A DNA stretch of 64,000 bases from a virus. Below are positions 16,687 to 52,582 of the stretch, piece by piece (positions within the stretch are counted from its first letter, which is position 1; each line of letters opens with the position of its first letter). The position numbers were made by a program, and so were the translations under genes. Location: the IMG/VR virus record IMGVR_UViG_3300037504_000288; one strand, written 5' to 3'. The notes under the pieces were generated by a model. That model had not been told where the DNA came from. It searched no databases and saw only the letters and a program-made list of their open reading frames with translations.

Positions 16687-18510
16687 CTAAAATTTTTCTC
16701 GGAACACTATACGACCAGTCGAAGGGTCGTAATAACTAACGCCTGCGACCCTAGAACCGTACTGTCTAGTAGTAGTCTCGTCGAACCCAGCGCCGTAATC
16801 AACGTCGCCGACGACCCGCCCCTGCTCGTTAATATCCAAGTTTTCAAAATCGAAATCTGTATCGCGACCAGTCACGCCTCCGAAGATGTCACTCTGGACG
16901 CTAGCGACCTTCTCGCCACCAGTGTAATAATCGAAATTGCTCAAGTAAGTGTCGCGCTCGTAAACGTCCTTGTCGCCAGTCTTACCATAGAGCACCAGCT
17001 CGCCAGCGTCGCGGTCGTAAAGCATCGCGTCGTTACCGCCGACGACACCGCCGCTCCTGACACGACCAGACGCTTCCAAGATGTCCTTATTCTCCTGGCT
17101 CTTAATGTAAGGACTCCAAGTACTCTGGCTCTTGATAACACCAGGCGCCTCATAATCACGCTTTTGCTGAAGGTAAACAGCACCCTCCTTCTCGATAGTC
17201 TCGTCGTCGCCGCGGTCGGTCTCTTTCTCGTAATCGTAATAATCGGCCCATTTCTTGAAACTAACCTCGCGACCTTTATCATCGTAGTCTATGAACTTAT
17301 CCTTCCTAATACGAGCCGAGTACTCCTCCTCGTCACCGTAACGGTCCTCCTTCTGCTCAAGGCTCCGGGTGTAAGGGGTCCAGCTACGATAACTCTTACG
17401 AAGACCTTTGTCGCCGTAGACAATGTCCTCTTTCTTGTAAACGTCGCCACGGCGCTTGTCCTTCTCGTGGTAGAAGCTGGACTCGCGGTCGAGCTCGTCG
17501 TCAGTACGCCTGTAATCATCCCATTTCTGCTTACGCTTGAAAAAACCCTTGTCGGTGAAGTCGATGTCTAACTTCTTGAAAACGTCCTTCTCAACATCAC
17601 GGGTTCGCTTCTCGTAACGGTCGTCGTAACTGTCGCGCCATCCGAACTCCTCGTCCGTGTCGCGCTTAGTATAAACACCCCAGTCCTGAGCTTTCTTCAA
17701 AACGCCCTTGTTATAATCGCGTTTCAACTTGGTGTACACATCACGCTCCTCCTTGCGACGGTAATCGTAATCGCGGTCCTCATCGTCACGCTCGTCCTCC
17801 TTCTCGTACTCGTACTCGCGACGGTAATCGCCGCGCTCAACGACGCTGCTCAGCATCTTACCGGTAGGGTCGAGGTTAATCTCGACAGGAGTGTAATAAC
17901 CGTACTCGGTGTCACGGTCGCGCTCGCGCTCGCGGTCGTCGCCACGATACCTATACTCCTTAGTATAAGTCTCTTCCTCCTCGTACTTCTTCTTAGGAGC
18001 GACGTACTTGGTGTCGCTGACCTTCTTGAAAGTGTCAGGGATATCAAGCTTCCAAGCGTTACTCTTGAGAACCATACCTGAAGGGTCGTAATCATACTTC
18101 TTCTTACGATAAGTGCCCTTCACGTTCAAACTCTTATTCTGCTTGTCAAAGTTGAAATTGAAAAGGTCGCCCTTGCCGCTGCCGAGCTTGGAAGCGAAAT
18201 TTTTAACACCCTTATCAACATCCTTCTGCGATAGAATACCGGTCTTTGAAGTGTTATCAACAAACCCCATAATATTAATATCCTGGCCAGTGTTAATCTT
18301 CTGGGTGAAGAAATCGTTATTAGCAACGTTATCGGGGACTTTGGCTTTGGACAATGCCATGTTAGTCATGTATTTCTTACGCTCAATGTCGTAACGCTTA
18401 TTGGTCAACCTGCCTTTCTTACGGTCGCCACCGCCAGCGTACCGGCTCTTTGAAGACCGAGACTTGCGATTAGGACCTCGAGATTTAGATTTTCTAGTTT
18501 TGGAAGCCAT
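16687..18510 (-). CDS. highly charged polyampholyte protein (607 aa; R/D/E/K/Y-rich, RDRDTEYGYY / DYRREYEYEKEDERDDEDRDYDYRRKEERD), Gly-rich C-terminal 120 aa
   Basis: ORF track; composition by eye. No recognisable fold. Confidence 0.55.
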   Translation of the reverse strand: MASKTRKSKSRGPNRKSRSSKSRYAGGGDRKKGRLTNKRYDIERKKYMTNMALSKAKVPDNVANNDFFTQKINTGQDINIMGFVDNTSKTGILSQKDVDKGVKNFASKLGSGKGDLFNFNFDKQNKSLNVKGTYRKKKYDYDPSGMVLKSNAWKLDIPDTFKKVSDTKYVAPKKKYEEEETYTKEYRYRGDDRERERDRDTEYGYYTPVEINLDPTGKMLSSVVERGDYRREYEYEKEDERDDEDRDYDYRRKEERDVYTKLKRDYNKGVLKKAQDWGVYTKRDTDEEFGWRDSYDDRYEKRTRDVEKDVFKKLDIDFTDKGFFKRKQKWDDYRRTDDELDRESSFYHEKDKRRGDVYKKEDIVYGDKGLRKSYRSWTPYTRSLEQKEDRYGDEEEYSARIRKDKFIDYDDKGREVSFKKWADYYDYEKETDRGDDETIEKEGAVYLQQKRDYEAPGVIKSQSTWSPYIKSQENKDILEASGRVRSGGVVGGNDAMLYDRDAGELVLYGKTGDKDVYERDTYLSNFDYYTGGEKVASVQSDIFGGVTGRDTDFDFENLDINEQGRVVGDVDYGAGFDETTTRQYGSRVAGVSYYDPSTGRIVFREKF

Positions 18511-19928: not shown

Positions 19929-20284
19929 TTGGGACCTTTAAGAACCCAGTAATCGTCAAGGTACAAGTAAAAATCGTCCTCTGAATAATCATAACAATAA
20001 TAAACGTTAACACCAAGCGACGAGTTAGTAGTGACGATGTAATAATCACGGTCTGGATGTAATAATAACACTAGCCCGAACCTCGTGCCTGGAACCCTGA
20101 TTCGCCAAATCCTACCCTGTTTGATAAGCCTGGAAACGCGACGCCGCAATACTAACTGCACGCTACCGTTATCACGATAATCGCCTAGGATGGTGTAATA
20201 ACTATGAGGGGTTTCTTTAACAACTGATATTATGTTGTCATCATCATACACCACGCTCCTAACGTCTACTTTGCAACTTCGCAT
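19847..20284 (-). CDS. hypothetical protein (145 aa)
   Basis: ORF track; start overlaps stop of upstream ATPase fragment (ATGA). Confidence 0.4.
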   Translation of the reverse strand: MRSCKVDVRSVVYDDDNIISVVKETPHSYYTILGDYRDNGSVQLVLRRRVSRLIKQGRIWRIRVPGTRFGLVLLLHPDRDYYIVTTNSSLGVNVYYCYDYSEDDFYLYLDDYWVLKGPKWSRWVHKLDSLKLLKSDGREGGVMIW

Positions 20285-20871
20285 TATGAAATTTTCTCCT
20301 CCCTAACCTTATTAACAACTTGTTTAGCGTCCATCAGCAAATTCTGAACGTGCTTTTTACTAATAGGAATATCGTACTGGTTCTTGATATGTAATATGAT
20401 ACGGTTCATGCTGAACGTTGTGTCGTTCATCATGACATCCTGTAACGCTAACATTAACAACGACTTATGAACGTCCTCGGTGGTCAGTGTGTCACGCGCT
20501 ATGTCATCGTCGTAAACGTTAGACTCACGAATTTGCAAGTATTTATCATACAACCACTTCGGCGGTTTCGGGAACCTTATAACCTTCCAGAAATTAGGGT
20601 GCTTCCTAAGCTTCTTCTCAATCTTCTCAAGGCTGGTGAACTCGGTGTACGAGCCCACGTTCTTGAAATCTTTAATACGCCACGGGTCGTTGACCGGGTT
20701 CTTATCCTTAACATAGATAGCGCCAAGACCACGCCCAAACAGGTCGCAATTATGAACAACCATATTATTTGCAACAAAATTATGGTTATCTTTGACACCG
20801 ATAATATCGTAAACATCTTCTTTTTGGTCTAATTTAGTAATAGATTTTATATTAACCAACATATCTATCAC
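20284..20871 (-). CDS. IntC-like segment (41 aa) + C-extein (~154 aa) of the P-loop ATPase
   Basis: MIDMLVNIKSITKLDQKEDVYDIIGVKDNHNFVANNMVVHN|CDLFGRGLGAIYV...; GTG start immediately after an in-frame TGA; overlaps the upper ORF by 20 nt. Confidence 0.55.
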   Translation of the reverse strand: MIDMLVNIKSITKLDQKEDVYDIIGVKDNHNFVANNMVVHNCDLFGRGLGAIYVKDKNPVNDPWRIKDFKNVGSYTEFTSLEKIEKKLRKHPNFWKVIRFPKPPKWLYDKYLQIRESNVYDDDIARDTLTTEDVHKSLLMLALQDVMMNDTTFSMNRIILHIKNQYDIPISKKHVQNLLMDAKQVVNKVREEKIS

Positions 20872-21787
20872 CTTTACTCAAATTGTCTTGTGCCCATAAT
20901 GGTTGCAAATTTTTATAATTAAAACATTTATACCTTTCATCTTCTTTAGTTAAATCAAAATGTGAGCATGGAATAATATGGTCAAGATTCCATGTATCTT
21001 TACCCCAATTAACCCAACTCATTCCAGGTTTAAATTGTTTAGAAATATGAATTTTAAAATATTCTATCGAACAACCTAAATATTTAAATATTGATTGAGT
21101 TTTTTTTGTTTTATTTTTTCTCAATTCAGTGTTTAGTCTACTACGAATCACTTTTGATATTTTATAATTAATATTTAATAAAGATTTTTTTTCATGATTT
21201 CTTATTTTTTCTCTATTTTTTTTTCTATATTCACTATGTTTTTTTAAAATATCTTCTCGATTATTATAATAATTTTTTTTTAATTTTTTTAATATTTCAT
21301 TATATTTTTCATAATATCTTTTTCTACAACGATGTTTATTATCTTCTCTATTTATTTCTCTATATTTTTTATTATAATTATATTGTCTTTCTGTTCTCAC
21401 ATTAAATGCGTTCTTACATTTTTCTGAACAATAAATTTGTTGTTGTTTTTTTGGTAAAAAATCTTTTTTACACCAATTGCATTTTTTTGTTTTAACTTCT
21501 ACTTTATCATCTTCTGACAAATCTTTTAACCTAATCCATCCACGTTGTGTTAAAAATGGGTGGTCTTCAGTACATTTAATTTTCAATCCATTTTCTAATT
21601 CTAATTCATAAATTTCAGCATTTTTCTTTGTTTTAATTTTTTTTTCATATTTTTTAAATTCATACTCTTTTGTTTTTTCATTAAAACTCAACACTTCAGG
21701 ATTATATTTATTCAATTTTTTAACCGGTGTATTTCTAATCATTCCATTAATATCACGAGTTTTTATTTTAGTATCACCTGTAACACA
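20749..21787 (-). other. intein 2 with HNH homing-endonuclease domain, interrupted by a +1 frame change at ~20852-20871 (split or frameshifted)
   Basis: Starts CVTGDTKIK (codon 332 of upper ORF); terminal blocks VYDIIGVKDNHNFVANNMVVHN followed by Cys+1 are in ORF 20284..20871 in the +1 frame. Confidence 0.55.
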
Positions 21788-22780
21788 CCAATAATTTACA
21801 AATGAATTATGCACAACAAAATTATTGGCTATATAATTATGATTATCTTCAACATCTAATATATCATAAACATTTTTTTTATCTTTACATTCTATAGATA
21901 ATATTTTAGTATACGATAAATCATTTAATTTTATTTCGTCATTAATTTTTATTTCATGTAAATGTTTCCAACCATTGTATGTCATAAATCTATGGTTTTT
22001 TGTTGCTAATATTTTTGTATTAGATTGTGTAATAATCTCATAAACATAATCTGTTTTTGTTTTTATACAACTTTTTGCATTTTTTAATTCTAAGGTGTTT
22101 AATTTTTCATTTAAAGTATAAACTTTAAAATTTTGTTTACCTTCTAAATCTTTTATTTTAATATCACCAAATTCGGTTTTTATTAAAGTGTCACCGTCTA
22201 AACACTCTAAATAGTTTTTCTCCATCTTATAAATCTTCAACGGGAACGCTAAGATGAAGAATAAATGTTTAGTTCGTACCTCGGCGAGCTTCCGACGCAA
22301 TTCTTTACTCTCACTTTTTGCCCAATCAGCGGATGAGGCAAACCGTACTGCCTCGTCACAAACCAACGGCTCGAACTTATTCAATGAATCAACCTTGTCC
22401 ATGACGTCCTTATTACTATACGCAAAATGCCTTTTAGGGTCGAACCGTATCCCTATCAACTTACACCACTCGCGCGCTAATAATAGGGCCGCCGAACTCT
22501 TACCGGTTCCTTTATCACTTGTTAGTAGTAACATACTATCGAAGTTCGCAAGGTTACGATGAAGTATGTGTTTGACGAATAATTTGAACACTTCATACTT
22601 ATCAAACTTGTTATCGACTTTAGCTTTAGTCTCGTATTCTATCATTTCTTGAATGATAAAAAGAACATCGTTTATACTAAGCTTGACATCCTCGGGGGTG
22701 TCAGTGTTCCAATTTTTTTTTATAATTTCTAAAATAACCCTTTGTCTAGCAAATCCCAATCCTTGAGACACTATTATCAC
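20852..22780 (-). CDS. P-loop NTPase (putative DNA-packaging/terminase-like ATPase), N-extein + mini-intein + 6-aa linker + N-part of HNH-intein
   Basis: Walker A LLLTSDKGTGKSSAAL and Walker B PLVCDEA in first 192 aa; then CLDGDTLIKT...NVYDILDVEDNHNYIANNFVVHN|S (intein blocks A,B,F,G), then SFVNYW, then CVTGDTKIKTRD... containing an HNH module (CNWCKKDF...CSEKC...DHIIPCSHF...N) up to the stop at 20852. GTG start at 22780 overlaps the TGA of the upstream small gene. Confidence 0.6.
   Translation of the reverse strand: MIIVSQGLGFARQRVILEIIKKNWNTDTPEDVKLSINDVLFIIQEMIEYETKAKVDNKFDKYEVFKLFVKHILHRNLANFDSMLLLTSDKGTGKSSAALLLAREWCKLIGIRFDPKRHFAYSNKDVMDKVDSLNKFEPLVCDEAVRFASSADWAKSESKELRRKLAEVRTKHLFFILAFPLKIYKMEKNYLECLDGDTLIKTEFGDIKIKDLEGKQNFKVYTLNEKLNTLELKNAKSCIKTKTDYVYEIITQSNTKILATKNHRFMTYNGWKHLHEIKINDEIKLNDLSYTKILSIECKDKKNVYDILDVEDNHNYIANNFVVHNSFVNYWCVTGDTKIKTRDINGMIRNTPVKKLNKYNPEVLSFNEKTKEYEFKKYEKKIKTKKNAEIYELELENGLKIKCTEDHPFLTQRGWIRLKDLSEDDKVEVKTKKCNWCKKDFLPKKQQQIYCSEKCKNAFNVRTERQYNYNKKYREINREDNKHRCRKRYYEKYNEILKKLKKNYYNNREDILKKHSEYRKKNREKIRNHEKKSLLNINYKISKVIRSRLNTELRKNKTKKTQSIFKYLGCSIEYFKIHISKQFKPGMSWVNWGKDTWNLDHIIPCSHFDLTKEDERYKCFNYKNLQPLWAQDNLSKGDRYVG
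21806..22204 (-). other. mini-intein 1 (133 aa; Cys1 ... His-Asn, +1 Ser)
   Basis: Codons 193-325 of ORF 20852..22780; block A CLDGDTLI, block B-like ATKNHRF, blocks F/G VYDILDVEDNHNYIANNFVVHN. Confidence 0.65.
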
Positions 22781-49560: not shown

Positions 49561-50000
49561 AAATCACCAATTTATTCATTTTAGTGTTTTTATTGATGAT
49601 GTTAATCAGTATGACTTTAGGGAGCGAGAGTCGTCAGTCCGGGATGACGTTGGAGGAGGTCGTTGTGGTTGCCGAGGAGTCGATGAGCGTTAACACTTCC
49701 GAGTTCAATATTCAAACTATTAACGGCACCGAGAACGCTACCGAGCTGTCCAGTAAATACACAACTAACATGGTCAACCAAGCGGTAGTGGGAGTGCTGG
49801 ACAGTTTATTCTCGATGTCCAAATATTCGATAGTGCAAGGGTACACTTACGACGGCGAGATTGATTTAATAAGCATGGTCAGGCTGATAACAATATGTTT
49901 CATTATCTATATACTGTTCATACCGGTGCTGATAGTATCGTTCTTGATAGTGTACGGGGTTAGAAGAATAATTAGGAAAAAAGAGGGTTTGAAAGAATGA
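49557..50000 (+). CDS. membrane protein (147 aa; N-terminal signal/TM and C-terminal TM)
   Basis: ITNLFILVFLLMMLISM and ITICFIIYILFIPVLIVSFLIVYGV. Confidence 0.45.
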   Translation: MKITNLFILVFLLMMLISMTLGSESRQSGMTLEEVVVVAEESMSVNTSEFNIQTINGTENATELSSKYTTNMVNQAVVGVLDSLFSMSKYSIVQGYTYDGEIDLISMVRLITICFIIYILFIPVLIVSFLIVYGVRRIIRKKEGLKE

Positions 50001-52582
50001 CTGATAACGATGATGTATTAATATACGACCTTGAGACAGAGGTGGTCGGTTTCAAGCCTGACGGTGAGAAGGATATATTGCGAGTGTTCGGGTTCTACTC
50101 TTACAAGAACGACAAGTTCGGGATTCTACCGTATTACAAGAAGGAGGCTATTAAGAAAGTGTTGGACAGTCATAAGTTCTTAGTAGGGTTTAATAATAAG
50201 AATTACGACGATGCCATCCTCAAAAGGTCCGGGTACGATGTCAAGTATAAAATCAGTATCGACCTTTTGGAGCTTGTCAAGAAACGTGCAGGCGTTATAA
50301 CAATAGGTAAAGGTAGTGTCAAGGATAATCTTATGCGGTACCGGCTCGATGATATAACCAGGTTCTTGAATATAGTTGATGACGAGACCGCGAAGGAAGA
50401 GATTGATTATGATATTTTTAAGAAGACGAGCTGGAACAAGGCAGAGATAGCTGAGATTAAGAAGTACACTATCCGTGACATTGAAATCACCAAGAAATTG
50501 TATGAATGGTTGGAGGAATATTTCGAAGGGTTCAAAGAGTTCGTTAACAAAGAGGATATTAAAAAAAAGAAATACTTGACCGACACCATTGCTAATTTCG
50601 CGTACAAGGCTATTTGTAAAGATATGGATTGGGAGCCGGTCTATAACAGGGACGCCGAGGATATCCCAGAGGATGAGAAGATTAGCGGTGGGTACGTGGC
50701 GTTCCCGGCAGGCGAGCGGTTCGAAGGTAACCTGGTGCAGTTGGATTTTTCAAGTTTGTACCCGCACGTTTTAATTCAAGGTAACCTGTTAGGGCGTAAC
50801 AAGAACACTAATGAAGGCTGGCACGGTGGCGGTAAGTGGGAAGTTCAGGGTTTCTATAACGATAAAGAGCTTAGCGGCGTGAGTAAACTGATTAGAAAAT
50901 GGTATTTTCTGAGACTGCATTATAAGAGGAAAGGAATACTTGAAAACAACGACGAGTTCAAGTACAAGAACGCAGAAAAACACATTGGCGAGAAGTATTA
51001 TTTTATACATGAGAAGAACGGAACTACCGTTTTGGAACTTCGCGAAATAACCAAGAGTGTGGCTGATGAGTTGTTGAGTTATCACAATCAAGGAGTTGAC
51101 CCTCGTCAGTACACTATTAAAATCATTATTAATACCTGTTACGGTATCCTTAACACACCGTATTACAAGCTAATCCATGACGAGGTTGCTGGCGGTGATT
51201 GTACTAGAATAGGCCGTCAATGGACGAAGTACGCTCGTAAAGTGTTCCGTGAAGAAGGGTATAATTTATTGTATTCCGATAGCGTAAGTAAAGACTCTAA
51301 AATCAGATTACGAGACGGTAAACAAATAACTGTTAATGAATATTGGAACAAATATACATTTAATAAAATTACTAATGGTAAAGAATATGCGATGTGTAAC
51401 AAAGAAATTTTAACATGTGATGAAAATTTCAAGAATGTCTTAAAAGTGCCAGATTATATTATAAGACATAAAACTAAAAAGAAAATGTTTAAAATATGGC
51501 TGACAAACGAAAAACACGTGTCTGTTACAGAGGACCATAGTTTGATAACAATTAATCCAGAAACACAAAAATATGATGTTATTAAACCAAACGAAATTAA
51601 TGACAAAAAATATGTGTTGTTAAATTCACACAATGTGCGAGATATATATAGAACATCTATATATTCTGAAAATAAATCAACTTATATAAATAAAAACAAA
51701 AGAATATTATCAACTAATTTAATAACAGAAATTGAGTCTGATTTTAAATTGTGTAATGTTAAAAAAGTTGAGGAATATTATACGGATGATTATGTTTATG
51801 ATTTTTCTATTAAAGGAATAGAAAAATTTTATGCAAATGATGTATTAGTTCATAATACCGACAGTTGGTATTTTGAGGATGTTTATGATGATATGGACAA
51901 GGTTATGGATACCAAGGATAAAGTCATTAAAGACATCAAAGATACCATGCCGTTCCCGCAACCGACCTTTAACGCTGACGTCGATAGCGAGATGAAATAC
52001 ATGTTTTTTTTCAAAGGCGATGAGAAAGATTTTGATACTAAAGAGTTCGACGAGGATGATTGGAAGAATTATAAGAAAGGGTTCATGAAGAAGAACTATA
52101 TCTATGTCGACAAGTACACTAGCGAAATCACTTTGAAGAACCTCGGTGTTAAGAAGAAGAGTATTAGCGCGCTATCCAAGAAAATATTCTGGGATTACAT
52201 GGTGCCCGAGATTAAGAAGGGTGTTGTCAAATTCAGTAAAACCTGGGTTGATAATTTAATGATTAAACTGTTACAGGAGAACATTGAGTATGCGTTCTTC
52301 AGGAAGGACGTTAAACCGCTGACTCATTATAAGAAGTCAATGACCGGCATCCATGCCAAGTTCAGTAAACGCTACGGTCCAGGCATCCATTTTGTAATCC
52401 CTAACAATAAAGGCGTAGGGGTTGGCGATAAGACCACGTACTGCTCGTACGAGGAGTTCAAGGAGAAGCGAATGGGAATCTCAGACATTGACATGACACC
52501 GTTCTGGAAGGAGCTCAAGTATTTCATCAAGGAGCCGAAGACAGTTTCGATATTCGACTATGAAGGCGTCAAGAGGCGATAA
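49997..52582 (+). CDS. polB: family B DNA polymerase containing a mini-intein in motif C
   Basis: Exo I LIYDLETE, Exo II FNNKNYDDAIL, Exo III YTIRDIEIT; Pol motif A LVQLDFSSLYPHVLI, motif B KIIINTCYGILN, motif C LLYSD|intein|TDSWYF (=YxDTDS). Extein ~669 aa. Confidence 0.85.
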   Translation: MTDNDDVLIYDLETEVVGFKPDGEKDILRVFGFYSYKNDKFGILPYYKKEAIKKVLDSHKFLVGFNNKNYDDAILKRSGYDVKYKISIDLLELVKKRAGVITIGKGSVKDNLMRYRLDDITRFLNIVDDETAKEEIDYDIFKKTSWNKAEIAEIKKYTIRDIEITKKLYEWLEEYFEGFKEFVNKEDIKKKKYLTDTIANFAYKAICKDMDWEPVYNRDAEDIPEDEKISGGYVAFPAGERFEGNLVQLDFSSLYPHVLIQGNLLGRNKNTNEGWHGGGKWEVQGFYNDKELSGVSKLIRKWYFLRLHYKRKGILENNDEFKYKNAEKHIGEKYYFIHEKNGTTVLELREITKSVADELLSYHNQGVDPRQYTIKIIINTCYGILNTPYYKLIHDEVAGGDCTRIGRQWTKYARKVFREEGYNLLYSDSVSKDSKIRLRDGKQITVNEYWNKYTFNKITNGKEYAMCNKEILTCDENFKNVLKVPDYIIRHKTKKKMFKIWLTNEKHVSVTEDHSLITINPETQKYDVIKPNEINDKKYVLLNSHNVRDIYRTSIYSENKSTYINKNKRILSTNLITEIESDFKLCNVKKVEEYYTDDYVYDFSIKGIEKFYANDVLVHNTDSWYFEDVYDDMDKVMDTKDKVIKDIKDTMPFPQPTFNADVDSEMKYMFFFKGDEKDFDTKEFDEDDWKNYKKGFMKKNYIYVDKYTSEITLKNLGVKKKSISALSKKIFWDYMVPEIKKGVVKFSKTWVDNLMIKLLQENIEYAFFRKDVKPLTHYKKSMTGIHAKFSKRYGPGIHFVIPNNKGVGVGDKTTYCSYEEFKEKRMGISDIDMTPFWKELKYFIKEPKTVSIFDYEGVKRR
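51281..51856 (+). other. mini-intein (192 aa) inserted in PolB motif C (pol-c site)
   Basis: Starts SVSKDSKIRL (Ser1), block B VSVTEDHSLI, blocks F/G DDYVYDFSIKGIEKFYANDVLVHN, +1 Thr. Confidence 0.7.

Follow-up and report, generated by a model that had tools for sequence, protein, structure and literature searches.

Architecture of the ATPase locus

We analyzed a stretch of 64,000 nucleotides (nt) of viral DNA (IMG/VR record IMGVR_UViG_3300037504_000288; 'the window' refers to this whole stretch), in which the gene for a P-loop ATPase is distributed over two overlapping open reading frames (ORFs), A and B, on the minus strand. We consider it likely, and hold this view with good confidence, that this phage gene has been invaded by two inteins, the second of which is naturally split, with its N-terminal fragment (IntN) fused to an HNH-type nuclease. 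The C-terminal fragment (IntC) opens ORF B.

ORF A (20852-22780) encodes 642 residues followed by a stop codon, and reads from the N-extein to the nuclease in a single frame. The N-extein (residues 1-192, 22205-22780) matches intein-free homologues and carries the motifs of an ASCE P-loop ATPase, GTGKSS (Walker A, 22493-22510) and LVCDEA (Walker B, 22349-22366). It is followed by intein 1 (residues 193-325, 21806-22204), a contiguous, nuclease-free mini-intein of 133 residues with Cys1 in CLDGDT, block B TKNH, a terminal VVHN and a +1 Ser. Intein 1 is inserted at NYLE/SFVNYW ('site e'; slashes mark splice junctions), and is recognized by Pfam Intein_splicing as well as by both our home-made IntN and IntC hidden Markov models (HMMs). 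Only six extein codons, SFVNYW (18 nt, residues 326-331, 21788-21805), separate it from the IntN of intein 2 (residues 332-433, 21482-21787), which is 102 residues long, contains Cys1 in CVTGDT and block B CTEDH, and is inserted at NYW/CDLFGRG ('site d').

In frame with this IntN are a zinc finger of the type CxxC...CxxxC (CNWC at 21470-21481, CSEKC at 21416-21430) with a long basic helical linker (residues 434-566, 21083-21481), and a nuclease core (residues 567-642, 20855-21082) of the HNH type (His-Me finger, 'endonuclease VII'-like). The core has the motif string YLGCS...LDH...NLQPLW...DNLSKG and ends four codons beyond where ORF B begins. An 11-nt overlap, ATGTTGGTTAA (20852-20862), includes the stop codon of ORF A as well as the start codon of ORF B, and a Shine-Dalgarno (SD)-like AGGTGAT (20867-20873) is located just upstream, inside the KGD codons of the nuclease tail. 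ORF B begins with an IntC of 38 residues, MLVNIKSITKLDQKEDVYDIIGVKDNHNFVANNMVVHN (20749-20862), detected by Pfam and by the IntC HMM, and continues into a C-extein of 154 residues (20287-20748; 20284-20748 with the stop codon) that opens with the +1 Cys of CDLFGRG. A first-pass annotation, made from the sequence of the window, had described the Walker motifs, the mini-intein, the six-residue spacer and a second intein with an HNH-type nuclease, and all of these are present where it had placed them.

Intein identity and splice boundaries

As the first-pass annotation had proposed, both ORFs were compared with intein profiles and the gene with homologous ATPase genes, and both comparisons bear out its assignment. 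The Pfam profile Intein_splicing (PF14890) matches ORF A in three stretches (E 6.6e-28) and residues 5-41 of ORF B over profile positions 120-155 of 155 (E 9.9e-8). The latter score, 32.4 bits, is under the gathering cut-off of 35.8 bits, as expected for a chain limited to the C-terminal blocks. The home-made HMMs recognize the two parts of intein 2 with E 1e-50 (IntN) and E 2e-24 (IntC), and the best PDB profile match of its IntN is the NrdJ-1 intein (8ubs, E 1.2e-13). The class 1 residues are complete in intein 1 (C193, TKNH, VVHN/S) and in intein 2 (C332, TEDH, VVHN/C). Across the split copies found in relatives, Cys1, TxxH, the terminal His-Asn and the +1 Cys are invariant.

Deletion of both inteins gives a protein of 352 residues (192 + 6 + 154), for which 307 metagenomic homologues were found. 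More than 80 of the 120 homologues listed are about 350 residues long and intein-free, with 98-99% of the query aligned at 50-68% identity. In intein-free homologues NYLESFVNYW[CI]DLFGRG is uninterrupted; the intein-free allele L001, for instance, has AAAAACTATCTTGAATCATTCGTAAATTATTGGATTGATTTGTTTGGAAGAGG at this position. Because the spliced extein aligns end to end with these proteins, the intein boundaries are verified, and the anatomy of the gene is established together with its exact splice junctions. The comparison with homologous genes also showed that the split layout recurs, as described below.

The junction between the two reading frames

The TGA at 20880-20878 closes frame B upstream and the TAA at 20854-20852 ends frame A, so any switch between frames would be confined to about 25 nt. 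The junction does not contain a homopolymer. ORF B as listed extends from a GTG (20871-20284, 195 residues), is in the +1 frame relative to ORF A and overlaps it by 20 nt; the break thus falls precisely at the boundary of nuclease and IntC blocks, as the first-pass annotation had stated. The same annotation had assigned this GTG as the start, in an SD-free coupling context, and had counted 41 residues for the IntC. On these two points our analysis favours the ATG at 20862, which has AGGTGAT as its SD motif. The motif agrees with the SD consensus over 7 nt; 4 nt separate its end from the ATG, or 8 nt when counted from the position aligned with the GGAGG core, and nothing comparable was found upstream of the GTG at 20871. 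Matches of at least 6 nt occur at 1.8% of random positions, and matches of at least 5 nt are seen for about a third of the ORFs in the window versus 7% of random positions. The gene callers of two databases chose the ATG, and in all relatives the Met falls at the same aligned position. An exact look-up returned no record of the 195-residue, GTG-started protein; the ATG-started form of 192 residues is recorded (P0241). ORF B probably starts at ATG 20862, which would give a protein of 192 residues, an IntC of 38 residues and an overlap of 11 nt.

An independent assembly of SRR12689834 in Logan matches the window over 13.9 kb with 100% identity. The same protein is also present in a JGI record (P0121), where it was gene-called from an internal Met. 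This agreement speaks against a quirk of assembly.

At the other end of ORF A, the GTG start codon at 22780 overlaps the stop codon of an upstream ribbon-helix-helix (RHH) gene (GTGA). A second in-frame GTG is located at 22771 and is preceded by GGAAGTGAT, with the same spacing as between the SD motif and start codon of ORF B. Because of this alternative start, the N-terminus of ORF A is uncertain by three residues.

The split recurs in relatives

A search with the IntN and nuclease as query yielded eleven divergent proteins (36-64% identity), nine of which (P0122-P0130) have the cassette at the site of intein 2 and two (P0132, P0134) at the Walker B site. In all eleven the chain stops 4-10 residues past the nuclease motif's N..K. 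In 10 independent loci including the window, which come from different samples and display three junction geometries, the IntC is encoded by an ORF of its own that starts with ATG. The junction DNA was read at eight loci, namely the window and seven relatives. An 11-nt overlap with the IntC ORF in the +1 frame is found in the window, L003/L004, L005, L006 and L010, and also in L011, L091 and the P0126 locus, so that the window shares this feature with seven relatives. In L008 and L009 the overlap is 4 nt (ATGA) and the IntC ORF is in the +2 frame, and in L007 the TAA stop codon is followed by 2 nt and an ATG, with zero overlap. The conserved ATG is preceded by an SD-like motif in all eight junctions (AAAGGTGAT, GAGGA, AAGGGGG or AAAGGTGGA): the sequence AAAGGTGATAGATATG is found also in L003, L005 and L010, and GAGGA, AAGGGGG and AAAGGTGGA are the motifs of L007-L009.

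We also searched 5.8 billion protein clusters with a synthetic query made up of the nuclease tail, the IntC and the first part of the C-extein. The query recovered 40 clusters (at 90% identity) of proteins of 192-228 residues, which consist of a Met, an IntC of 38-53 residues and the extein starting with CDLFGRG. No protein among the 5.8 billion clusters spans the nuclease tail and the IntC, and the maximal query coverage was 63%. Likewise, a survey of 170 fetched loci with the home-made IntN, nuclease and IntC HMMs gave none in which the three are combined in one frame. These junctions indicate that the frame break is real, inherited and kept across relatives. The first-pass annotation had offered a naturally split, trans-splicing HNH intein in overlapping ORFs as one of three readings, and this is the one to which the 10 loci, their three geometries and the 40 IntC-first clusters lend support.

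A metagenome protein in ENA (P0095, 605 residues) contains a contiguous bifunctional intein at the P-loop site, with a nuclease of the HNH_3 type (PF13392). The absence of a contiguous form therefore concerns the endonuclease VII-like nuclease and not the host gene. A scan of IMG/VR with a single IntN-nuclease sequence gave no matches, and neither the locus nor the spliced extein, searched as DNA and as protein, had a match among 50,697 cultured-phage records.

The nuclease module

The D-H...N...N signature of the nuclease core is invariant in our alignments A1 and A4 (LDH at residues 599-601, N624 and N633). In the predicted structure the motif adopts a strand-strand-helix arrangement with a predicted local distance difference test (pLDDT) score of 92, and the linker forms long helices. 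The zinc finger and helical linker are presumably the DNA-binding part of the nuclease. The nuclease matches PHROG 1035 ('endonuclease VII') with E 2.9e-4, and 60 of 63 relatives match the same family. Members of this nuclease family also exist as free-standing phage ORFs of about 170-260 residues; 115 cultured-phage records and about 150 of the metagenomic loci that were fetched contain them. Nearly all matches in alignment-based scans, when sorted with the home-made HMMs, are free-standing nuclease genes. One of the fold searches with the nuclease was swamped by coiled-coil matches to the linker.

Selection and composition of the cassette

Ratios of nonsynonymous to synonymous substitution rates (dN/dS) were computed over pairs of split loci. 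Values of 0.04-0.39 were obtained for the IntC, which with a mean pN/pS (ratio of the proportions of nonsynonymous and synonymous differences) of 0.18 is under the strongest purifying selection of all parts. The values are 0.09-0.50 for the IntN and 0.11-0.55 for the nuclease core (0.11-0.43 in pairs that include the window), and the zinc-finger linker evolves almost neutrally (dN/dS about 0.85). IntN, IntC and nuclease core are all under purifying selection.

The guanine-cytosine (GC) content of the cassette is about 22% (intein 1 20%, spacer 22%, IntN 24%, nuclease 21%), whereas the C-extein has 43% and the window 42%. The genomes of relatives that bear the cassette have a GC content of 23-30%. 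Between the window and these relatives, synonymous difference amounts to 0.39-0.83 in the intein parts and is saturated (at least 1.0) in the C-extein. The cassette is compositionally foreign, and synonymously less diverged than the gene that hosts it. The simplest reading would be that it arrived horizontally from a low-GC relative, as expected of a homing element. The extein flank of L010, which is 92% identical at the nucleotide level, was considered as evidence of co-conversion and dropped, since it comprises only 13 codons and the contig ends there.

Intein sites in the ATPase family

The ATPase family is a hot spot for inteins. Insertions are found at five sites: site a in the P-loop (GKG/C...N/TGKSS), site b at Walker B (LI/C...HN/CDEA), site c (RFA/C...HN/S), site d (NYW/C...HN/CDLFGRG), which is occupied by intein 2, and site e (NYLE/C...HN/SFVNYW), which is occupied by intein 1. 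Outside the window site e is used only in P0122/L010, again beside a split intein at site d.

Contiguous mini-inteins are also found at site d. Three of them (P0038, P0111 and P0133) are 72-74% identical to the combined IntN and IntC core of the window, and because of this similarity the split intein 2 looks like a former mini-intein that gained a nuclease. Intein 1 is closest to inteins at site c (51-58% identity). We rejected the possibility that it is a recent duplicate of intein 2, as the two splicing cores are 44% identical; the near-identical C-terminal blocks, from which the first-pass annotation had derived a duplication into the adjacent site, do not carry that conclusion.

At site c, three loci (L006, L072 and L059) have a three-ORF layout, consisting of an IntN, a nuclease of the same family as a separate ORF in the +1 frame, and an IntC ORF, with the contig of L059 ending before the position of the IntC ORF. 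The overlap between the IntN and nuclease ORFs is always 8 nt, in the +1 frame (L006 3246-3253, L072 941-948, L059 556-563). In L006 (2531-5819 of Logan SRR22302353_5529) the ATPase gene is divided over four ORFs, in the order N-extein with the site c IntN, nuclease in the +1 frame, IntC with extein and the site d IntN-nuclease, and finally IntC with C-extein. The upstream gene for a superfamily 2 (SF2) helicase in L006 contains an intein with a LAGLIDADG domain. L007 (2-3286 of JGI 3300009149 Ga0114918_10007096) has split inteins with an IntN-nuclease at two sites of one ATPase gene, b and d, and in addition the tail of a further intein at the P-loop site. With multiple split inteins, the L007 protein would need at least three chains joined by successive trans-splicing. 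In L006 and L007, genes of this family are thus distributed over three or four ORFs.

The host ATPase and the surrounding genome

The spliced extein matched no PHROG family and no PDB profile, and in Pfam only nSTAND3 below threshold. The predicted structure of an intein-free homologue (P0002, pLDDT 82) has a core of generic AAA+/RecA-like type, flanked by helical domains at both termini. When compared with the cores of p97, TRIP13 and RecA, the model gives match probabilities of 0.95-1.0 at TM-scores of at most 0.3. None of these searches assigned the protein to a specific family. On one side the ATPase gene is flanked by the RHH gene and a gene for an SF2 helicase, and on the other by small unassigned genes. 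Around these genes lies a novel, phage-like genome with genes for a clamp loader, a family-B DNA polymerase and a second helicase-nuclease.

A third intein is present in the polymerase gene (ORF 49997-52582), at 51281-51856 on the plus strand. It is a cysteine-less intein of 192 residues (Ser1...TEDH...LVHN/Thr+1; Pfam Intein_splicing E 4.6e-11), is located in the polymerase motif YSD/TDS, and with 20-29% GC versus 40-50% in its flanks is compositionally foreign like the inteins of the ATPase gene. An ORF of 607 residues on the minus strand (16687-18510) is very rich in Arg, Asp, Glu, Lys and Tyr, with charged repeats (RDRDTEYGYY, EDERDDEDRDYDYRRKEERD); it matches no family, and relatives have an equally long ORF downstream of the ATPase gene. 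On the plus strand, an ORF of 819 residues (41802-44261) combines a PD-(D/E)XK nuclease domain (residues 17-215) with an SF2 helicase (ResIII / Helicase_C).

Proposed mechanism and alternative explanations

We propose the following model for the locus. A single mRNA would be translated into the chains of ORF A and ORF B, which would be produced together; coupled translation is probable because ATG 20862 overlaps the stop codon of ORF A, and the ORF B chain would be initiated from its own SD motif, AGGTGAT, and this ATG. Intein 1 would be excised in cis. The IntN and IntC of intein 2 would associate and trans-splice SFVNYW to CDLFGRG, resulting in the 352-residue ATPase. The excised heterodimer of IntN-nuclease and IntC could then act as a homing endonuclease and carry the cassette into the intein-free alleles of co-infecting relatives. 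Intein 1, which lacks a nuclease and is located 18 nt away, may spread by co-conversion with intein 2.

Several observations weigh against this interpretation. Trans-splicing, coupled translation and nuclease activity are deduced from conservation, and all intein-associated examples that we found fall in one ATPase family. The AGGTGAT motif lies within conserved KGD codons of the nuclease tail, and for that reason its conservation may partly be a by-product of constraint on the protein. The two agreeing assemblies may come from the same sample. None of the Pfam HNH models matches the nuclease, and fold searches with it were without significance, the top matches in Foldseek being HNH domains. 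Finally, the linker in the window is about 20 residues shorter than in most relatives, and the window reads WNLDHII at the position where relatives have WHIDHIK. The loss of linker residues and the altered motif mean that the nuclease of the window could be weakened. A similarly short linker is found in P0122.

We regard it as unlikely, though it is the alternative that survives best, that the cassette is split and splices while its nuclease in the window is a decayed passenger, in which case the element would be immobile and the homing cycle over. The linker deletion of about 20 residues, the deviation from the consensus WHIDHIK beside the catalytic His, and the almost neutral evolution of the linker (dN/dS about 0.85) would all fit such decay. 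However, the reading frame is intact over its full length, the D-H...N...N residues and the cysteines of the zinc finger are kept, and the core is conserved with dN/dS 0.11-0.43 in the comparisons that include the window. Moreover, the linker of P0122 is comparably short, and the strong GC contrast points to a recent arrival of the cassette.

It is improbable that the gene is split with intein halves that do not splice, either because the locus is decaying or because the ATPase fragments assemble non-covalently. There is a precedent for the latter, as two reports describe fragmented phage enzymes that assemble without being ligated (PMC3045599; for Aeh1 NrdA/nrdA, PMC2677866). Against this, Cys1, TxxH, His-Asn and the +1 Cys are invariant in every split copy, and the IntC is under the strongest purifying selection of any part (mean pN/pS 0.18). 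Elsewhere, the ATPase is a conserved single-chain protein (307 homologues matched).

Programmed +1 ribosomal frameshifting or bypass of the stop codon, which would fuse ORFs A and B, is very improbable. The ORFs overlap and the 11-nt ATGTTGGTTAA is kept in several loci, which speaks for such a mechanism, but there is no slippery or prfB-like motif, GTT GGT TAA is unable to re-pair in the +1 frame, and L007-L009 have other junctions (an ATGA overlap with a +2 frame, or a stop codon, 2 nt and an ATG). Since the geometries differ, no single frameshift mechanism fits; what the junctions have in common is an ATG preceded by an SD-like motif. The weakest alternative is the one in which a 1-nt sequencing or assembly error near 20852-20880 splits an ordinary contiguous HNH intein: one base change within about 25 nt would merge the frames and the two agreeing assemblies might share reads, yet this explanation, like the inactivated gene that the first-pass annotation had also considered, is contradicted by the recurrence of the stop codon and separate IntC ORF in 10 independent loci from different samples (36-64% protein identity, three geometries), by 40 IntC-first clusters with no contiguous form among 5.8 billion clusters, and by a junction without a homopolymer, and we find it hardly credible.

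We therefore return to the reading of intein 2 as a naturally split intein with a nuclease on its N-terminal half. A wider view, which we put forward tentatively and rate at somewhat under even chances, is that an IntN-nuclease with a separate IntC is a stable, selected architecture instead of a transient intermediate and constitutes a fourth intein configuration next to full-length, mini and split inteins, in which the nuclease would be complete only upon assembly of the two chains. If this is true, one ATPase family preserves stages of the capture of a nuclease by an intein: free-standing HNH genes elsewhere in phage genomes, an HNH ORF between the halves (site c), and the 5'-fused form (sites b and d), while a completely fused form was not found for this nuclease family. 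It would then offer material for a direct test of the gene-breaking model of Dassa et al. (2009), as well as new orthogonal natural split inteins.

Comparison with known intein systems

Reviews sort inteins as full-length inteins with a nuclease inside, mini-inteins and split inteins (PMC7765530; PMC4760082). In the open-access literature we found no description of an intein whose IntN is fused to a nuclease while its IntC is encoded separately. The locus and its relatives merge two of these classes, in that the N-terminal half of a split intein covalently bears the putative homing nuclease. For genome annotation this means that what looks like a frameshift just past a nuclease carried by an intein should be neither 'repaired' nor labelled a pseudogene. 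The dozens of diverged natural IntN/IntC pairs at three sites in one protein, with a 38-residue IntC and similarity to NrdJ-1, are candidate orthogonal tools for trans-splicing. The six-residue spacing of the two inteins is notable but not unprecedented in kind, because the intein sites a and c in DnaB are two residues apart (PMC4760082).

Canonical bifunctional inteins, such as PI-SceI and others with LAGLIDADG or HNH nucleases, have the same order of elements as the window, with blocks A-B, the endonuclease in the same loop and blocks F-G, and they combine splicing with homing, a life style that the element in the window would share. They differ in that the chain in the window is broken between the endonuclease and block F; because the precursor consists of two chains, splicing must take place in trans. 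In this respect intein 2 resembles the split DnaE inteins of cyanobacteria (Npu and Ssp), with which it shares the position of the split, the size of the fragments (IntN about 100 residues, IntC about 36-40 residues) and the residues Cys1, HN and Cys+1. The halves of DnaE are encoded at distant loci, whereas those in the window adjoin and overlap in one operon; furthermore, the IntN in the window bears a nuclease tail of 209 residues and the host protein is a phage ATPase. The nuclease itself is homologous to free-standing HNH/endonuclease VII-like proteins (PHROG 1035) in its zinc finger, helical linker and D-H...N...N core, but has no start codon of its own and is fused to an intein half.

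The closest parallel is provided by the 'fractured genes' described by Dassa et al. (2009), in which a free-standing gene for a GIY-YIG or Vsr-like endonuclease is located between the halves of a split intein; the split inteins gp41-1, NrdJ-1 and IMPDH-1 stem from such genes (PMC2677866). In these genes the IntN is followed by a spacer of 27-51 nt, and the endonuclease gene overlaps the IntC ORF by 6-69 bp (PMC2677866). As in the window, a gene of the phage replication module is broken, on one strand, at the canonical point of endonuclease insertion, and the 3' end of the endonuclease gene overlaps the IntC ORF and provides its Met, with 11 nt of overlap in the window. The profile search, which placed NrdJ-1 nearest to the IntN of the window, adds to the resemblance. 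In contrast to the fractured genes, the window has no stop codon, spacer or separate start after the IntN, and hence two ORFs instead of three, and its nuclease is HNH/endonuclease VII-like. Within the ATPase family, the IntN continues in frame into the nuclease without a stop codon in the window and, among relatives, at sites b and d; the layout of the fractured genes is found at site c (L006, L072 and L059).

Dassa et al. (2009) suggested that HNH endonucleases 'could fracture genes', and their model includes a step IIIa in which the flanks of the endonuclease gene are lost, leading to its fusion into the intein (PMC2677866). An ATPase family that also includes a version with a free-standing nuclease gives real sequences for steps that the 2009 model only drew. 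The layout in the window is this hypothetical step IIIa, carried out on the 5' side only.

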